The notes below the pieces were generated by a model. That model was given only the letters and a program-made list of their open reading frames with translations, searched no databases and had not been told where the DNA came from. A stretch of DNA of 23,470 nt from an uncultured Eubacteriales bacterium. GTDB taxonomy: Bacteria; Bacillota; Clostridia; Lachnospirales; CAYPQA01. A program made the position numbers and the translations under genes. The DNA lies in the NCBI GenBank assembly GCA_964412725.1, contig CAYPQA010000024.1:1-23470 (forward strand), given 5' to 3'. Shown piece by piece: positions 1,702-10,462 of this stretch; within the stretch, counting starts at the first letter, position 1; every line of letters begins with the position of its first letter.

Positions 1702-2679
1702 CTATTCAGAGTTCAATTTAAACTGCCTGTATATACGTTCCTTGACCTTTTCGAGAAAATGCTCGGGGCCCAGAACCTTTAGAACGGGGCCGAAACTCAA
1801 AATGCGTATCAAAAGCTCGGTTTCGTCTTGGGTATCATAAAATATGCGGCAGATGAAAAAGTTGTTTTCTTCATCATACTCTGTTTGTTTTTCCCAAGAT
1901 GCAAATTGAAGCATGCAACGTTCAAGCGCGTTACGCTCCTTTGAGATTTGTAAAACTATAGGCTCTGATGAAAAGTTGTTGAAATAACGTTCCGGCTTGA
2001 AATCCGAGGACACATTTTCGCCGGAGATACAAACATCAATAATACGGGACAAATTTAGCGTTATGCCCTTATGTCTTAGATTTTGTAGCGTAACACATAG
2101 CAAGCGGAATTTGTCGTCACGGCTTGAATAGCTTATCTTGTATGGAAACACAGTGTGCTTTGCTGGCGTACGGGAGCTGGTCTCGTAGTTTACATAAATA
2201 ACCTTTCTATCGTTGCAGGCTTGAAGTATGGTTCTGAAATTTCTTATGTATTGCTCATTGTCGTATGGATCGCCGTCGGACGCTGTATCAAAAATATGAA
2301 AATCCTCTTGAAGAAACAACGGCTCGACATCGGCCAGTTCATTATTCAGATATTTAACGTCGTCTTCGGAAAGAAATAGCAGTATTCGCTTATCGGTCAA
2401 CAGCGACTTGATCCAAGACTTTTCCAAAAGCGTCATGGGTCTTTCTGTCTCGGAATTAAGCTTTGAATAGAATTTGCCGTCCTCTTTCTTGTCGAGCAGG
2501 TGCCATTCGTCCGAGAAAAGCTTGGGCAGCATATGAAAGGCACTGTCATAGAACCCATCGGTGCAGACGAGTTTTTCTATATCTGCCCTGTGCATGCCCG
2601 CTTTTGACATATTCAATATCCTTGCCACAACTGTATAATAACAGCCGTAAACCTCCGAAAATAGTAAATCAGATACCAT
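1702..2679 (-). CDS. WYL-domain transcriptional regulator (wHTH-WYL-WCX architecture, PafB/PafC-like)
   Basis: WYL-like core DRKVIYVNYETSSRTPAKHTVFPYKISYSSRDDKFRLLCVT. C-terminal extension ELLIRILSFGPVLKVLGPEHFLEKV matches the WCX/C-terminal motif of WYL regulators. 325 aa is typical for PafB/C, BrxR and CapW. Overlaps the upstream WYL gene by 11 nt (operon). Confidence 0.75.
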   Translation of the reverse strand: MVSDLLFSEVYGCYYTVVARILNMSKAGMHRADIEKLVCTDGFYDSAFHMLPKLFSDEWHLLDKKEDGKFYSKLNSETERPMTLLEKSWIKSLLTDKRILLFLSEDDVKYLNNELADVEPLFLQEDFHIFDTASDGDPYDNEQYIRNFRTILQACNDRKVIYVNYETSSRTPAKHTVFPYKISYSSRDDKFRLLCVTLQNLRHKGITLNLSRIIDVCISGENVSSDFKPERYFNNFSSEPIVLQISKERNALERCMLQFASWEKQTEYDEENNFFICRIFYDTQDETELLIRILSFGPVLKVLGPEHFLEKVKERIYRQFKLNSE

Positions 2680-3898
2680 ATAATTCCTTCATCCTTTTAA
2701 TATCGTTATAAAAGCGGTTAATAACCGTGCTGTCCGTGCCTTCAAGCTGAATTATTCGCCCCATAAAAGTCTTTATCCATGGCGAAATATCGTTAAGGTC
2801 AAACAATTCCTTTGTGTAGAGGAAGATATTCTTGTCCAAATGCACAAGCTCGCCGCCATGTCCCTCTCTTATTATCCTTTCTATTATATACCCCTCTTTT
2901 TCCTCATCTATAAAAAGCTTCATACACACAAGCTGATTCCTATTTCTGCCTCCGAAACAAACTCCCCATACTTTGTCTATATTCTTTTCAAGATTTTCTC
3001 TATAAAGCGGAACCTCGTCGCAAACATCACGCAGTTTTAATGTCATTATATGGTCTAAGCGGTAACTGAAATATCTTCTGGTTTCTGTCTTATACACACA
3101 AACGTAACGACGTCCTGTTGCCGTGCTTACAAAAATTTTCAAAGGTATACCAATGATACTACCCAACTTTTGTGTTTTTTCGCAGTAGTTCTCAAATTCT
3201 ACAGACATATTTTGCCTTATCGCAGTAAGCAGTTGCAAAAGAATGCCGCTCTCTAAGGTGTGAGCCACATAATAATGCTTAAACGCAAAGGTATCGTTCG
3301 AAGTCTGTTCATTATCCATAATATGTCTTCCGATTTCACCAAACGGTGCGGCTCCCTGAAAAAACTTTACAGCCTCTATTAATCCCGGAATCTTTTCCGA
3401 CAAACGGCTGAAATATAAATCCGAAAGACTATAGAGAAGTGTTTTGCCGTTTTTCTTAGCCGTCAAAAGCCCTGCCTTAAGATATTCCGTACACTTTAAC
3501 CTGACCGTCTGCACATCAAACACCTGTTCGCTTTGCTCGGATACAGCGTTCGTGAGCTGTTCGACAGACAATTCCAAGCCTTTTATGAGAACGTCCATAA
3601 TATAGAAATGCAGCATAATATCATTGGCTGTAAAAGCCTTAGACTTCCAAGCCGAATAAAGCGGGTTCACACGGATTTTGGCGCAATCCATTGAAATAAA
3701 AGATGTCTTCCCAGACTTGGTATAGGACCACTTCATATACTCGCCTAAATAACTCTCAATTCGTCGTTTTTCATTGTCGTATGTACGCGGTGATTTATGC
3801 TTAAAATCATTGCGTGACTTAAAGCCATAAATATAAAAATCGCGCATATATACCCTTATCTTATCAAAATTTCTAATTAACTCGTTAAATTCCCTCAT
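2669..3898 (-). CDS. WYL-domain transcriptional regulator, second paralogue, with a roughly 130-aa N-terminal extension
   Basis: wHTH-like segment VQTVRLKCTEYLKAGLLTAKKNGKTLLYSLSDLY, WYL-like core GRRYVCVYKTETRRYFSYRLDHIMTLKL, C-terminal PWIKTFMGRIIQLEG. The tool start is GTG 3937; the first ATG (3898, MREFNELIRN) has a weak GGTGAGAG upstream. Start is uncertain within 3898-3937. Confidence 0.7.
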   Translation of the reverse strand: MREFNELIRNFDKIRVYMRDFYIYGFKSRNDFKHKSPRTYDNEKRRIESYLGEYMKWSYTKSGKTSFISMDCAKIRVNPLYSAWKSKAFTANDIMLHFYIMDVLIKGLELSVEQLTNAVSEQSEQVFDVQTVRLKCTEYLKAGLLTAKKNGKTLLYSLSDLYFSRLSEKIPGLIEAVKFFQGAAPFGEIGRHIMDNEQTSNDTFAFKHYYVAHTLESGILLQLLTAIRQNMSVEFENYCEKTQKLGSIIGIPLKIFVSTATGRRYVCVYKTETRRYFSYRLDHIMTLKLRDVCDEVPLYRENLEKNIDKVWGVCFGGRNRNQLVCMKLFIDEEKEGYIIERIIREGHGGELVHLDKNIFLYTKELFDLNDISPWIKTFMGRIIQLEGTDSTVINRFYNDIKRMKELYGI

Positions 3899-4011
3899 TC
3901 TCTCACCAACTTCGCAACTTTTTTTAAATGATAACACTGCAAATTAATGGTAATATCTTAGCATAGCAAACAAACATTAACAATTAAAATTGAATGAAAG
4001 GATGTGATTAT

Positions 4012-5244
4012 ATGTTTGTTATTGCTAACGAAGATACAAGAGTGCCGATTAAGATTTGGCTTAAGGATGAAAAGAGTTTGGAAGAGAGCTGTATTGAACA
4101 AGCATATAATCTATCCAAGCTGCCGTTTTTGCATAAGTGGGTCGCATTGATGCCCGATACGCATACAGGCATGGGCATGCCAATCGGCGGCGTTATAGCC
4201 ACAACCGACGTTATCATCCCGAATGCGGTTGGCGTTGACATAGGCTGTGGTATGGCTTTCGTGAGCACAAACATCCCTGTTTCCGAAATTAAGGATATTC
4301 AAACCGGAAATGGTATGTTTATAAATGCAATGATAGGCGACATACTCCGCAACATTCCGCTTGGTTTCAGGCACCACAAAAAACCGCAACCTTGTCATAC
4401 GCTTGACGATGCATTTGAAGAACTCGACAAGTACGAGGAAAACGGAGAGCTTTTGGGACAGCTTGAAGCTGGCTATTTCCAAGTTGGAACCTTGGGCGGC
4501 GGCAACCACTTTATAGAACTACAGCAGGATGATGAGGGTTATCTTGCAGTTATGATACACTCGGGGAGCCGTAACTTTGGAAAACAAATTTGTGACGCTT
4601 TTCATAGAACCGCAAGAGAATTAAACATAAAATGGCACAGTGCAGTACCGCCAGAATACAGGCTTGCTTTTCTTCCTGTCGATTCAAAAGAAGGTATTCA
4701 GTACATAAATTGGATGAATCTTGCATTGAACTTTGCGGCTGAAAACCGTCTTAGAATGATTCTTGCTGTAAAAGCCATTCTTGAAAAATGGATCGGCAAG
4801 TACACCGATTTAAGCATTGAGTATGATATGGAAATAAACTGTCACCATAATTATGCGGCCATAGAAAACCATTACAACCAAAACGTATGGGTACACCGCA
4901 AGGGTGCAACAAGGGCAGAATCCGGTGAACTGGCTGTGATACCCGGTGCTATGGGTTCTTACAGCTATGTTGTGGAAGGTCTCGGCAACGAAATGAGTTT
5001 TAAAAGCTCATCTCATGGCGCAGGACGCAGATATTCGAGAAAAGGCGCAATGGCCGCCTTCACCACAGAACAGGTTATGGTCGACTTAAACAAGCAAGGT
5101 GTTGTCTTAGGCAAGTACAATAAAAACGATGTTGCCGAGGAAAGCCGCTTTGCTTACAAAGACATTGACGAAGTTATGGAAAACCAAAAGGATTTGGTTA
5201 AGCCCATAAAGAGATTAAAGACATTAGGTGTAGTAAAAGGATAA
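4012..5244 (+). CDS. rtcB: RtcB RNA 3'-phosphate/2',3'-cyclic phosphate ligase
   Basis: Hallmark RtcB motifs: DTHTGMGMPIGG, HSGSRNFG, CHHNYAAIE, SHGAGRRYSRK. The ATG at 4012 follows RBS AAGGATG at the canonical spacing. The upstream ATG 3994 lacks an RBS. Confidence 0.95.
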   Translation: MFVIANEDTRVPIKIWLKDEKSLEESCIEQAYNLSKLPFLHKWVALMPDTHTGMGMPIGGVIATTDVIIPNAVGVDIGCGMAFVSTNIPVSEIKDIQTGNGMFINAMIGDILRNIPLGFRHHKKPQPCHTLDDAFEELDKYEENGELLGQLEAGYFQVGTLGGGNHFIELQQDDEGYLAVMIHSGSRNFGKQICDAFHRTARELNIKWHSAVPPEYRLAFLPVDSKEGIQYINWMNLALNFAAENRLRMILAVKAILEKWIGKYTDLSIEYDMEINCHHNYAAIENHYNQNVWVHRKGATRAESGELAVIPGAMGSYSYVVEGLGNEMSFKSSSHGAGRRYSRKGAMAAFTTEQVMVDLNKQGVVLGKYNKNDVAEESRFAYKDIDEVMENQKDLVKPIKRLKTLGVVKG

Positions 5245-7280: not shown

Positions 7281-7969
7281 TGGGCGCGAACATTTTAAGA
7301 ATTGACTTAGGTGGCGTAAATTGCTACCTTGTAAAAGGTGAGCAAGGCTTTATACTTTTTGATACGGGCGGTCATATTGTCACAGATAAGCAGTTCTCTG
7401 ATAGGCGTGAGCTTTTAGAAAAAGAACTCAATGCAGCCGGCTGTACTACGAACGATCTTAAGTTAATCGTTTTAACACACGGCGATAACGACCATGCACA
7501 TAATGCCAGTTACCTAAGAAAGATGTACAACGCGAAAATTGCTATGCATGAAGGCGACAGAGAATTAGTCGAAAGTCCAACTATTCAAAAATGGTTAAAA
7601 AGCTTCAATTACCGTTCTCTAATCTACAAATTGGTTTTCATTATACTTCGCAAAACTATTACAACGGTAACGCAAAAAACACTGGATGATTTTGAGCCTT
7701 TTACACCTGATATATTCTTAAAAGACGGCGACAGTCTTTCGCCTTACGGTTTGGACGCTAACGTGTTTCATGTCCCAGGTCACACGGATGGTTCTATTGC
7801 GATTTTCACTTCAAGTGGCGAATTAATTGTCGGAGATACGCTTACAAATACCGATAAGCCCGGAAAAGCTCCAAATGCCTTTAATTTTAAGCAGTTGAAC
7901 GATAGTCTGCTTAAATTAAAGAATCTTCCGATTAAGGCGGTTTATCCAGGACACGGAGCGTCATTTTAG
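7277..7969 (+). CDS. MBL-fold metallo-hydrolase
   Basis: Motifs THGDNDHAHNASYL (HxHxDH) and HVPGHTDGS, later GHG. The ATG at 7277 overlaps the padR stop, with RBS AAGGGGG upstream. The tool start at 7154 lies inside padR. Confidence 0.85.
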   Translation: MMGANILRIDLGGVNCYLVKGEQGFILFDTGGHIVTDKQFSDRRELLEKELNAAGCTTNDLKLIVLTHGDNDHAHNASYLRKMYNAKIAMHEGDRELVESPTIQKWLKSFNYRSLIYKLVFIILRKTITTVTQKTLDDFEPFTPDIFLKDGDSLSPYGLDANVFHVPGHTDGSIAIFTSSGELIVGDTLTNTDKPGKAPNAFNFKQLNDSLLKLKNLPIKAVYPGHGASF

Positions 7970-7992
7970 ATTTAGAGCTATGAATTTTATAA

Positions 7993-8054
7993 TTGACAAA
8001 GCAAAAAATGTGCAGTATCATGAATCAAGTATACATTTTTAAAATATACTATAA
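7993..8054 (+). promoter_or_regulatory. promoter region for the repeat RNA (toxI-like)
   Basis: TTGACA (7993-7998), 17 nt, TATCAT (8016-8021), and/or TATAAT (8049-8054) with a weak -35. Hairpin GGTGAA-ATAG-TTCACC (8056-8071) lies just before the first repeat. Confidence 0.35.
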
Positions 8055-8073
8055 TTGGTGAAATAGTTCACCA

Positions 8074-8178
8074 CGAGTGCTTCGCCACTTTAAGTGCGAC
8101 TTATTGAATTGAGTGCTTCGCCACTTTAAGCGCGACTTATTGAATTAAGTGCTTCGCCACTTTAAGCGCGACTTATGA
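8074..8178 (+). ncRNA. toxI: type III toxin-antitoxin RNA antitoxin (ToxI/AntiQ-like): 2.9 tandem 36-nt direct repeats
   Basis: R1 8074-8109 gagtgcttcgccactttaagtgcgacttattgaatt; R2 8110-8145 is identical except for t>c; R3 8146-8178 is partial. It is immediately followed by an intrinsic terminator and then a ToxN-family gene, the canonical ToxIN layout. The repeat contains CTTTAAGTGC, and GAATT where ToxI has GAAATTC, which resembles Pectobacterium ToxI as I recall it. Confidence 0.7.
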
Positions 8179-8180
8179 TA

Positions 8181-8208
8181 GAGGTGGACTGGTTCCACCT
8201 CTTTTTTT
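8181..8208 (+). terminator. intrinsic terminator between the repeat RNA and the toxin gene
   Basis: GAGGTGGA (8181-8188), loop CTGGT, TCCACCTC (8194-8201), TTTTTTT (8202-8208). This matches the attenuating terminator that sets the toxI:toxN ratio in ToxIN loci. Confidence 0.7.
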
Positions 8209-8222
8209 GGGAGAAAAATATT

Positions 8223-8735
8223 ATGATTGATTTTTACGACGTAGATAAGAAATACATAGAGTTTCTGCAGAATTCAGAAACTGAAGTTAGAGGATTTACT
8301 CGCGTGCCAAATATGGAATACGGAGTTAGAATGCAAAAATTTCTGTGCGGTATTGTACTTAAGATTAATGAAATAAACTACTATGTTCCTGTGACTTCAA
8401 AAAAAGAAAGATTGCCGGATTCAGTACTTGTTTTAATACCCACAGATAAAATCGACCAAATAAAGGGGTCTTTAAAATTCAACTATATGATACCTGTGCC
8501 TGATTTTGCAATAACTGTTCGTAAAATAAACTCAGAACCTGATTTGTCAAGAAGGCGATTTTTAAACGGTCAATTGCTATACTGTCAGAGCATAGAAACG
8601 ATTATTTTGAACCAAGCAAGGCGTACATATAATAAATGGTTTGAAGGCAAAGGCAGTGAACGTTTTTACTATAATTGTTGTGACTTCAAGCTTTTAGAGG
8701 AGAAATACAAAGAGTTTATCGAGACTAACAAATAA
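8223..8735 (+). CDS. toxN: ToxN/AbiQ-family type III TA endoribonuclease toxin
   Basis: 170 aa. N-terminal IDFYDVDKKYIEFLQ matches ToxN KFYTISSKYIEYLK. GIVLKINEINYYVPVTS matches GIVLEIQGHKYLAPLTS. LKFNYMIPV and C-terminal CDFKLLEEKYKEF match CDFAVLEEKYRDF. The ATG at 8223 has GGGAG 9 nt upstream. The tool start 8175 runs through the terminator hairpin and is rejected. Confidence 0.85.
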   Translation: MIDFYDVDKKYIEFLQNSETEVRGFTRVPNMEYGVRMQKFLCGIVLKINEINYYVPVTSKKERLPDSVLVLIPTDKIDQIKGSLKFNYMIPVPDFAITVRKINSEPDLSRRRFLNGQLLYCQSIETIILNQARRTYNKWFEGKGSERFYYNCCDFKLLEEKYKEFIETNK

Positions 8736-8786
8736 AAACCCCCAACAAGGTTTCGCCATGTGGCGCAAACTTGTTGGGGGTTTTTT
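8736..8786 (+). terminator. strong intrinsic terminator after toxN
   Basis: CCCCCAACAAG (8739-8749) pairs with CTTGTTGGGGG (8770-8780), with an inner sub-hairpin CGCCA-T-GTGGCG and a T-run at 8781-8786. Confidence 0.75.
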
Positions 8787-8863
8787 ATTATGCATTGCCT
8801 TAATCTCATCATCCCGATTTTTTTGTAATTTGTAACATTTTTTGTTTTTGTCCCTCCTTGTTT

Positions 8864-8894
8864 AGACAAATTATTTTTAGGGCATTTATTATAA
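8864..8894 (+). promoter_or_regulatory. candidate spoIIG promoter with a possible Spo0A-box-like element
   Basis: TAGACA (8864-8869), 19 nt, TATAAT (8889-8894). TTAGACA resembles a 0A box (TTCGACA) with one mismatch. Weak, by eye only. Confidence 0.25.
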
Positions 8895-8930
8895 TGATGC
8901 ATAAGGGACACCTCTTAATATGGAAAGGCT

Positions 8931-9704
8931 GTGGTAAATGTAGTTATATATGCGGATGTAATCTTTGCTATAAACTTTTTAATGGACTTGATTATTCTAT
9001 GGAGCGTTTCATATTTTGCGAAAAAACATCTAAGAGGCAAGCTTTACCTTGTGCTTGCCGCAGCACTTATGGCGTTGTCCTCTTGTTTCGGATTTTTCAC
9101 GGCCGGTATTTTGAAAATTCTTTTGTCGGTTGTAACGGTTTTTGCGGGTGTTTTTACAGCGTTCAAGATAAATAACATTTTCCGACTGCTTATTGTGTCC
9201 GCATTGATGTATATAGCCGCATTTTTCATAGGCGGTCTTACATTATTTCTTTTTCTGAATGTCAAGTCCTTTTCAATTTTACTATTGGTTTCATCTGCCT
9301 CCCTTTTCTACATAAGCTTTAGTGCCGTTAAATATATCTTTCGCCACTTACCCAAACAAAAGATTTTAAACGTCAGTATAAGCTTTCAGGAAAGGGAGGT
9401 TATTTTGCCTATGCTGGTTGACACAGGCAACTCACTCTCTGAGCCTGTCAGCGGCTTGCCTGTTTTCATTGCGGAGGCTTCAAGACTTGAGAGCATTTTG
9501 AGCGACGAAACTGTTTTGAGGCCTGTTGTGTTTAATACAATCTCGGGCGCGGATACGTGCATGTGTTTTAAGCCCGACCGCGTCTTGGTTGACGGTTTGC
9601 CCATTAATGAAATTTATATAGCTTTGCAAAATATAAAATTTTCAGAGAATAACGTCTATTGCGGCCTTATTAATCCAAAGGCTTTGCCCGACGGATTGTT
9701 TTAG
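8931..9704 (+). CDS. spoIIGA: sporulation sigma-E processing aspartic peptidase SpoIIGA
   Basis: Multi-TM N-terminal half (VIYADVIFAINFLMDLIILW...) and a C-terminal protease domain with LVDTGN (DTG aspartyl-protease motif). Lies immediately upstream of sigE as in Bacillus and Clostridium. GTG start, uncertain by a few codons. Confidence 0.85.
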   Translation: MVNVVIYADVIFAINFLMDLIILWSVSYFAKKHLRGKLYLVLAAALMALSSCFGFFTAGILKILLSVVTVFAGVFTAFKINNIFRLLIVSALMYIAAFFIGGLTLFLFLNVKSFSILLLVSSASLFYISFSAVKYIFRHLPKQKILNVSISFQEREVILPMLVDTGNSLSEPVSGLPVFIAEASRLESILSDETVLRPVVFNTISGADTCMCFKPDRVLVDGLPINEIYIALQNIKFSENNVYCGLINPKALPDGLF

Positions 9705-9724: not shown

Positions 9725-10462
9725 ATGATAGAGCGATTGTTTAAACAGATTATAAATAAATTTATGACGGAAATTCATAATAAGTACTCTCATAAAGAAT
9801 CAGAGGACGAAGTTTTTTATATAAGCGGTAGTGAGGTGTTGCCATTGCCGCTTAACGCGGACGAGGAGGCTGAGCTTTTGGAACAGCTTGGCGGCGAAAA
9901 TGATGAGAATGTACGTGCAAAGCTTATCGAGCGAAACCTGCGTCTTGTTGTATACATCGCACGAAAATTTGAAAACACGGGCGTTAATATTGAAGATTTA
10001 ATTTCTATCGGAACAATAGGGCTGATAAAATCCATTAACACATTTAAAACGGATAAGAAAATTAAGCTTGCAACCTATGCGTCCAGATGTATTGAAAACG
10101 AGATTTTAATGTATTTGAGAAGGAATACAAAAACAAAAACGGAGGTTTCGATTGATGAGCCGTTGAATGTGGACTGGGAGGGCAACGAGCTTTTGCTTTC
10201 GGATATTCTTGGTACAGACGTGGATATTATATATAGAAATGTCGAGGACGAGGTTGACAGAAGTCTTTTAAATCAAGCCCTAAGCCGTCTTTCAAAACGC
10301 GAAAAACGCATTGTGGAGCTTCGGTTCGGTATAAACTGTGACGGCGAGGAAAAAACCCAAAAGGAGGTTGCCGACATCTTGGGCATTTCACAATCCTACA
10401 TATCAAGGCTCGAAAAAAAGATTATCGGCAGGCTTAAAAAAGAAATATCGGGTATGTTTTGA
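9725..10462 (+). CDS. sigE: RNA polymerase sporulation sigma factor SigE (pro-sigma-E)
   Basis: Pro-sequence with [14 protein letters not shown]. Regions 2-4 are near-identical to B. subtilis SigE: [92 protein letters not shown]. Confidence 0.95.

Follow-up and report, generated by a model that had tools for sequence, protein, structure and literature searches.

The DNA examined here, called the window in what follows, is a stretch of 23,470 nucleotides (nt) from an uncultured Eubacteriales bacterium (contig CAYPQA010000024.1, positions 1 to 23,470 of the forward strand). Between positions 7993 and 8790 it carries a predicted promoter, three tandem 36-nt repeats, an intrinsic terminator, the gene for a 170-residue protein of the ToxN/AbiQ family, and a second terminator. 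A first-pass annotation had described this order of elements and had taken it for a type III toxin-antitoxin (ToxIN/AbiQ-like) locus; every element was recovered within 1-3 bases of where it had been placed, and the Pfam family PF13958, the predicted fold, the repeat array and the terminator all came out positive for this reading. In our view, this is very probably a type III toxin-antitoxin locus of the ToxIN (ToxN/AbiQ) family, chromosomal and intact. Its membership in the family is supported by the sequence layout, the protein family, the predicted fold, the catalytic residues, the conservation of array and terminator, and the covariation of the pseudoknot. The working definition of a type III locus is a tandem array, followed by a terminator and then by a ToxN homologue (PMC5086642), and the window has the three in that order.

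Layout of the toxIN locus

The elements of the locus are, in order:

7993-8021, forward strand: sigma-70-type promoter, TTGACA-17 nt-TATCAT (11 of 12 consensus positions, the best match of the region; called by consensus match alone)
8056-8073, forward strand: leader hairpin UGGUGAA-AUAG-UUCACCA, just 5' of ToxI unit 1 (-7.9 kcal/mol, z -3.5)
8075-8110, forward strand: ToxI unit 1, 36 nt, GAGUGCUUCGCCACUUUAAGUGCGACUUAUUGAAUU (Tandem Repeats Finder; covariance model, E 3.5e-7)
8076-8079/8086-8089 and 8082-8085/8096-8099, forward strand: stem 1 and stem 2, respectively, of the unit 1 pseudoknot (covariation)
8111-8146, forward strand: ToxI unit 2, 36 nt (Tandem Repeats Finder; covariance model, E 2.1e-7)
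8147-8179, forward strand: ToxI unit 3, with full pseudoknot core and shortened 3' tail CUUAUGAU (covariance model, E 4e-4 alone and 1.2e-5 in the joint scan)
8180-8208, forward strand: intrinsic terminator between toxI and toxN (stem 8180-8202 of 9 bp, 5-nt loop, run of seven T; -14.4 kcal/mol, z -3.6)
8209-8213, forward strand: ribosome-binding site GGGAG, 9 nt 5' of the ATG at 8223 (read from the sequence)
8223-8735, forward strand: toxN, predicted 170-residue ToxN/AbiQ-family endoribonuclease (PF13958, PADLOC AbiQ, fold, homologue N-termini)
8734-8790, forward strand: second terminator, a hairpin of about 23 bp (8734-8785) with an A-run on one side and a T-run on the other (-33.1 kcal/mol, z -7.3)

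The tandem 36-nt repeats of the first-pass annotation were confirmed by Tandem Repeats Finder (TRF), which placed the array at 8075-8176, with a period of 36, 2.8 copies, 96% matches and a score of 190. The array ends 46 nt upstream of the toxN ATG, on the same strand, and all other tandem repeats that TRF detected in the window have periods of at most 20 and scores of at most 55. The covariance model described below recognized exactly three units, at 8075-8110, 8111-8146 and 8147-8182 (E-values from 2e-7 to 4e-4), and no further match below E = 1 on either strand of the window. A single T/C polymorphism between the repeats had been claimed. This is the sole difference between units 1 and 2, at unit position 21, where copy 1 has U and the other two copies have C, but across the array the copies differ at two positions, unit position 1 changing from G to A in copy 3; in addition, the tail of copy 3 is shorter, with UAUGAU in place of UAUUGAAUU (CUUAUGAU in place of CUUAUUGAAUU). 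The accompanying guess that the T/C position is a tolerant one fits the family alignment, in which position 21, located between a conserved G and stem 2, is the most variable core column. A CRISPR-like array was considered and rejected, as the units are arranged head to tail without spacers. An Rfam scan of 7900-8900 at E <=10 returned chance matches centred on the terminators and no ToxI-type family, and a search of IMG/VR for phage-encoded mimics of the window ToxI gave no exact-pattern match.

The promoter, the intrinsic terminator (previously placed at 8181-8208) and the strong 3' terminator were likewise recovered, with the consensus matches and folding energies given in the list. Transcription is predicted to start at about 8028-8030, and in L083, one of the two closest related loci (L083 and L084, see below), the aligned position reads TTGACA-17-TATAAT. 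Hairpins of other sequence occupy the place of the leader hairpin in L083 (GGTGA-AAAA-TCACC) and L084 (GCAGA-TGGT-TCTGC); our guess is that the leader hairpin acts as a 5' stabilizer of the ToxI transcript. Of 72 related loci, 69 have a hairpin and T-run separating toxN from the last unit, and the toxI/toxN terminators of L083 and L084 differ from that of the window by compensatory changes. In Pectobacterium atrosepticum ToxIN, the internal terminator sets the excess of ToxI over ToxN (PMC5772629), and by analogy the terminator of the window locus would be expected to let ToxI RNA exceed toxN mRNA. The second terminator, possibly bidirectional, insulates toxN from the downstream spoIIGA gene.

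The ToxN protein and the ToxI pseudoknot

The earlier reading of a 170-residue ToxN/AbiQ protein starting at ATG 8223 was upheld by the profile search. PF13958 (ToxN_toxin) is the single Pfam match of the protein (E 2.2e-34; 119 bits against a cutoff of 25) and covers its full length, residues 3-165 being aligned on positions 2-159 of the 159-position profile. The AbiQ model of PADLOC also matches (E 3.8e-28), no NCBIfam model did, and an exact-protein lookup of the window ToxN retrieved no record. The only significant sequence matches in the PDB were AbiQ (4glk) and three ToxN structures (2xd0, 4ato and 7d8o), with E-values from 7e-10 to 7e-9. The same four proteins headed the list when a structure predicted with AlphaFold (AF2) from 30 homologues (predicted local distance difference test, 93.7; predicted template modelling score, 0.89) was searched with Foldseek: the order was 4ato, 2xd0, 7d8o and 4glk (ToxN_Bt, ToxN_Pa, ToxN_Ec and AbiQ, respectively), with template modelling (TM) scores of 0.74-0.80 and E-values from 1e-10 to 5e-9, and MazF and CptN followed at E of about 1e-2, i.e. 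after a gap of seven orders of magnitude.

Aligned to 2xd0 by HMMER, the window protein has K39, T58, S59 and K61 at the positions of the catalytic K33, T52, S53 and K55 of ToxN_Pa and ToxN_Ec, whose mutation abolishes the toxicity of E. coli ToxN (PMC8860590). Conservation of K39 and S59 reaches 90% or more in the 30 homologues; furthermore, G43 aligns with the cis-peptide G37, Q117 with Q117 and Y88 with F88. Judging from this alignment, the catalytic machinery of ToxN looks intact, and the RNA-holding surface looks only partly conserved.

The start codon at 8223 is supported by the N-termini of the homologues, and the public protein record of the contig (P0001) already has 170 residues. The mechanical longest open reading frame (ORF) begins at ATG 8175, inside copy 3; the first-pass annotation had already pointed out that the toxin start of the ORF caller was extended through the terminator hairpin. 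We rejected the resulting 186-residue start, because it falls within unit 3 of ToxI and the terminator, and because both the homologues and the Pfam profile begin at 8223. It should be noted that a naive ORF call of this kind pulls the start of the toxin back into the antitoxin. An 80-residue ORF on the minus strand (8669-8911), which overlaps the terminator and is without support, was rejected as well.

Each ToxI unit fits an H-type pseudoknot made of two 4-bp stems, namely stem 1 at unit positions 2-5/12-15 (AGUG/CACU) and stem 2 at 8-11/22-25 (UCGC/GCGA), with 0 nt between strands 2a and 1b and a 6-nt loop, UUAAG(C/U), between strands 1b and 2b. For the covariance model, 56 distinct consensus units were used and stem 2 was the one structural element specified; stem 1 is absent from the model, and its covariation is therefore independent of the fitting. 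Covariation was evaluated twice, first on a structure-blind MAFFT alignment of the 56 consensus units and then on 116 distinct real genomic copies. Among the consensus units, 87.5% of the cells were paired, compared with 16-62% when the partners were slid by 1-3 columns, and double-change cells numbered 56 against 21.5 +/- 6.3 in column shuffles (0 of 500 as high), with compensatory changes at five of the eight pairs. Among the real copies, 89% of the cells were paired and there were 155 double-change cells against 51 +/- 18 (again, none of 500 shuffles as high). Stem 1 pairs in the 116 copies included AU (101), GC (14) and GU (1) at pair 2-18, and UA (69), UG (27) and CG (14) at pair 4-13.

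The units also conserve a G at unit position 20, just before strand 2b, and two adenines of the loop. The published ToxI template has two nested stems of 3-4 bp, a short loop between 2a and 1b, a longer loop between 1b and 2b, single-stranded tails, loop adenines that make A-minor contacts and a conserved G preceding stem 2b (PMC3401426, PMC8860590), and the architecture predicted for the window unit matches it as far as sequence can show. The geometry of the window unit (two 4-bp stems, no gap between 2a and 1b, and a 6-nt loop) is that of group I in PMC3401426.

The TRF consensus units of more distant arrays appeared to break stem 2. This was rejected on inspection of the real copies, each of which keeps the stem by compensatory changes, the TRF consensus being a chimera. 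Such heterogeneous arrays were seen upstream of toxN in L061 (185-293), and also in L057, L063, L071, L076 and L078; the stem 2 variants that occur among copies in one such array are GUUGC/GCAAC, UUCAC/GUGAA and UUCGC/GCGAA, with the pseudoknot kept in each copy.

One might ask whether the repeats are merely a cis-acting leader, i.e. a transcription attenuator or an mRNA-stability element, rather than a trans-acting antitoxin. Like an attenuator, the array does sit in a 5' untranslated region with a terminator after it, and shuffled sequences give less stable nested minimum-free-energy folds than the leader does (z -3.2). The covariation, however, backs the pseudoknot of each unit and not the long-range leader fold, the units are homologous to ToxI, which was shown to act in trans in the form of processed monomers (PMC5772629, PMC8860590), and the single-stranded tails are the most conserved part of the units among close relatives, as expected of a protein recognition site. 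We consider the cis-acting leader extremely improbable, and regard the array as a ToxI-type antitoxin.

Related loci and genomic context

Relatives were collected by an alignment-based scan of one genome per species, which yielded 80 loci; a genome scan with the single window ToxN protein as the query gave no match. The 80 loci belong mostly to uncultured Clostridia, Lachnospiraceae and Oscillospiraceae, and their proteins are 37-59% identical to that of the window; the nearest proteins, from a collection of 5.8 billion sequences, are 64-66% identical. In 66 of the 80 loci, TRF found an array with a period of 33-56 nt and 2-3.9 copies, ending 40-190 nt before toxN. The covariance model detected units in 12 of the 14 loci lacking a TRF array, and one of the two exceptions has just 91 nt of upstream sequence; a ToxI-type unit is present directly upstream of toxN, on the same strand, in at least 77 of the 80 loci. 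Searching both strands of 412 kb from 81 sources gave 153 matches at E <=0.01; each shares the strand of toxN and lies no more than about 310 nt upstream of it, and there was none elsewhere. Because units were found solely in front of toxN over these 412 kb, a ToxI covariance model for Clostridia would be practical.

Relatives in phages are rare and distant (three records, with identity of 40% or less), and those on plasmids are common and distant (134 records, 35% or less). Six of the loci (L015, L040, L052, L064, L066 and L068) come from bins labelled Bacteroidales, Bacteroides or Alistipes, the family being otherwise found in Firmicutes; either horizontal transfer in the gut or the mis-binning of contigs of metagenome-assembled genomes could account for them.

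The closest relatives, L083 and L084, show an uneven pattern of conservation. Their arrays (3853-3957 and 93-197, respectively) consist of exactly three 36-nt units and are 89-92% identical to window positions 8075-8179, while their toxN coding sequences are 63-65% identical to that of the window at the nucleotide level and 64-66% at the protein level. The tail UAUUGAAUU, the shortened UAUGAU tail of unit 3 and a leader hairpin of differing sequence recur in all three; the promoter region is not conserved among them, the conservation being specific to the RNA. In the lineage of the window, L083 and L084, the RNA is therefore much better conserved than the toxin gene, which is mildly unusual. 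It is conceivable that one ToxI type neutralizes several diverged ToxNs, a reading that we regard as rather doubtful; if it were true, it would mean cross-protection between loci, and the ToxN of this lineage would have a distinct, fixed recognition site of about UUGA^AUU, usable as a new sequence-specific RNase. The ToxIN systems of Pectobacterium and Bacillus are reportedly free of cross-talk. The more mundane reading is that nearly all nucleotides of a 36-nt pseudoknot with protein-bound tails are constrained.

The conservation of the RNA also bears on whether the locus is an inactive remnant, in which the layout has been kept and the toxin or the RNA no longer works. Chromosomal toxin-antitoxin loci often decay, and the array and terminator without toxN at L087 show that partial loci exist. 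Nevertheless, the window ORF is full length with respect to the Pfam profile (2-159 of 159) and its catalytic residues are intact; the repeats are 96% alike and 89-92% identical to those of loci whose toxN is at 63-65%, which points to continued selection on the RNA; and the promoter keeps 11 of 12 consensus positions, with the ribosome-binding site and the two terminators undamaged. Decay of the window locus is thus very unlikely, and an intact module remains the preferred reading.

The partial locus L087 deserves a separate description. On this metagenome contig (Ga0131853_10227365), three ToxI-like units at 803-945 are accompanied by a terminator and a ribosome-binding site. No ToxN-coding sequence was found downstream (tblastn gave nothing below E = 1.4), and the sole ORF of at least 80 residues (279-551) lies upstream of the array. 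The DNA around the array looks internally repetitive. L087 could be a disrupted locus or a free-standing antitoxin.

The neighbours of the window locus include the following:

1702-2679, reverse strand: WYL-domain protein (PADLOC WYL, 7.5e-16), 5.5 kb away
2669-3937, reverse strand: 422-residue ORF with no Pfam or PADLOC match
3994-5244, forward strand: RtcB RNA ligase (Pfam E 5.5e-113), 3 kb upstream of toxN
8931-9704: SpoIIGA, downstream
9725-10462: SigE, downstream

Further upstream neighbours are an SPFH protein, PadR and an MBL-fold hydrolase, and beyond SigE lie an acetyl-xylan esterase (AXE1) and an AMP-binding enzyme. The locus indeed adjoins spoIIGA-sigE, in agreement with the sporulation-gene neighbourhood described in the first-pass annotation, and on account of SpoIIGA, SigE and the other neighbouring genes, we conclude that the host is an endospore-forming Firmicute and that the locus is chromosomal. 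When seven neighbours were submitted to PADLOC, the only matches were that of the WYL-domain protein and a marginal LmuA match to the MBL-fold hydrolase. For SigE and PadR, the lookups retrieved nothing but short Logan contigs, none of which extends to the toxIN site.

ToxN-type cleavage leaves 2',3'-cyclic-phosphate and 5'-OH ends, and RtcB is a ligase for such ends. Its closeness to toxN is probably coincidental: RtcB occurs within 2.5 kb of toxIN in none of the 80 related loci. The same holds true for SPFH, PadR, MBL, SpoIIGA, SigE and AXE1, none of which was found within 2.5 kb of toxN in the 80 loci. As no related locus shares the neighbours of the window, the toxIN cassette moves between contexts on its own.

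This mobility raises the question of what the cassette is kept for. L083 (1-8510) and L085 (1-5057) lie within apparent conjugative elements, with a TraG-like P-loop ATPase, an M23 peptidase, RcpC, and TadZ-like and T2SSE/CpaF-like pilus genes; the window copy, by contrast, lies between housekeeping and sporulation genes. The module might be a working ToxIN system maintained for selfish reasons, i.e. an addiction or post-segregational-killing cassette left by, or stabilizing, a mobile element, rather than a phage-defence system. The conjugative context of these closest relatives (TraG-like ATPase, Tad/T2SS pilus genes) is in favour of this possibility, and so are the lack of shared flanking genes, the dip in GC content to 0.33-0.36 over 8000-9200 (about 0.40 in the flanks), and the finding that ToxIN stabilizes plasmids by killing segregants (PMC5772629). 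However, the two roles are not exclusive, as characterized ToxIN and AbiQ systems do both, and no integrase, transposase or conjugation gene adjoins the cassette in the window. Phage linkage is neither supported nor excluded, only three phage records having a relative. A purely selfish role is possible, if on balance unlikely, and the identification of the locus as a ToxIN module is common to both roles.

Known type III systems and predicted mode of action

One system for comparison is ToxIN of P. atrosepticum, carried by pECA1039 (2xd0, 2xdb and 2xdd), in which promoter, 36-nt ToxI repeats, terminator and toxN follow one another in the order seen in the window. The two also have in common an H-type pseudoknot with single-stranded tails, the ToxN fold (TM 0.74-0.78) and the catalytic K/T/S/K residues, and the units are recognizably homologous and share CUUUAAGUGC. 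The published P. atrosepticum unit is AGGTGATTTGCTACCTTTAAGTGCAGCTAGAAATTC (PMC8610362). The likeness to Pectobacterium ToxI that had been noted in the first-pass annotation holds, copy 1 sharing with this unit the 10-mer CTTTAAGTGC exactly and matching it at 26 of 38 aligned positions, which none of 500 shuffles equalled in score. The differences are no less clear: protein identity is only about 22%, there are 5.5 copies in P. atrosepticum versus 2.8 in the window, the strands of stem 1 are separated by 8 nt versus 6 in the window (a shorter loop 1), and the system is carried by a plasmid, unlike the window locus, which is chromosomal in a spore-forming Firmicute. The tail is AGAAAUU in Pectobacterium and UUGAAUU in the window, so that the two ToxNs probably differ in cleavage specificity.

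ToxIN of Bacillus thuringiensis pAW63 (4ato), also from a Gram-positive host, is the best structural match (E 1e-10, TM 0.77, 25% identity) and has a similarly short array (34 nt x 2.9, PMC5086642, compared with 36 nt x 2.8 in the window), but its units differ in length and sequence and it is plasmid-borne. AbiQ/antiQ of Lactococcus lactis pSRQ900 (4glk) gives the best sequence match among the solved structures (E 7e-10) and has 2.8 repeats as well, though with a 35-nt unit (PMC5086642), about 22% protein identity and a plasmid location; it has a proven abortive-infection phenotype, whereas the window locus is known from its sequence alone. CptIN (4rmo) and TenpIN resemble the window locus in having a tandem-repeat RNA antitoxin upstream of an endoribonuclease toxin; membership in these families was rejected, given that PF13958 is the sole Pfam match and that CptN is a weak fold match (TM 0.51, E 0.02).

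The family, its layout and its occurrence in gut Clostridia have been known since 2009-2012. The toxIN loci of gut Clostridia, catalogued by Blower et al. in 2012 (PMC3401426) and including those of Ruminococcus sp. 5_1_39BFAA, Roseburia intestinalis and Eubacterium rectale, share with the window locus the toxin family, the layout and the pseudoknot template, and one of our 80 loci, L048, is from Ruminococcus sp. 5_1_39BFAA, listed with one toxIN locus in Table 1 of that work. The window locus is a distinct lineage inside the ToxIN family, of known family and layout, and not a new system.

On these grounds, a mode of action can be proposed. A constitutive promoter would give rise to a short transcript of about 180 nt, made of the leader hairpin and three 36-nt ToxI units and mostly ending at the internal terminator, with a minority of read-through into toxN, so that the RNA would be in excess over the protein. 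ToxN, presumably a metal-independent endoribonuclease with the active site K39/T58/S59/K61, would cut the array in the single-stranded tails between units. The predicted cut is UUGA^AUUG, between 8107 and 8108 and between 8143 and 8144 (a further cut may fall between 8178 and 8179), by register with the ToxI of P. atrosepticum and E. coli, whose GAA^AUU aligns with UUGA^AUUG of the window. Each freed unit would fold as an H-type pseudoknot, its UUAAG(C/U) loop carrying the conserved adenines and guanine, and the pseudoknots would bind ToxN head to tail, blocking the active site in a closed RNA-protein ring, which is 3:3 in the solved relatives. If the supply of the labile RNA stopped, following phage-induced shut-off of transcription or loss of the locus, free ToxN would cut cellular and phage RNAs, and the outcome would be growth arrest or death (abortive infection or addiction). 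Thus, we infer from characterized relatives that the window ToxN may be toxic, neutralized by ToxI and protective against phages, and it is from the same relatives that the processing, the exact cleavage site and the stoichiometry of the complex are predicted.

Several points weigh against this interpretation. Transcription, processing, toxicity and protection are all inferred. The assignment of the RNA relies on our own comparative model, because Rfam has no matching family. In stem 1, the G5-C12 pair shows no double change, and G5 hardly varies; G5 may be a conserved turn nucleotide, as in E. coli ToxI, which would leave stem 1 with three or four pairs. Some RNA-holding residues are lost, W57 being without a counterpart and Y110 being aligned with R110, and the predicted motif GA^AU differs from the AA^AU and GAAA^U of the enterobacterial ToxNs that have been studied; for both reasons, the specificity is uncertain. 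Finally, the window has no further defence or mobile-element gene beside the locus, and a role in defence has no support from the context.

The locus is of interest chiefly for annotation, its RNA antitoxin not being visible to gene callers. Because gene callers miss ToxI and Rfam has no family that detects it, such loci are recorded at best as a lone "ToxN/AbiQ family toxin". The window locus supplies a predicted new cleavage motif and opens no new question. Some of the ToxIN/AbiQ members that have been tested protect bacteria from phages, and with the window locus, the candidate defence or addiction systems of a spore-forming, Clostridium-like organism gain a further chromosomal ToxIN.

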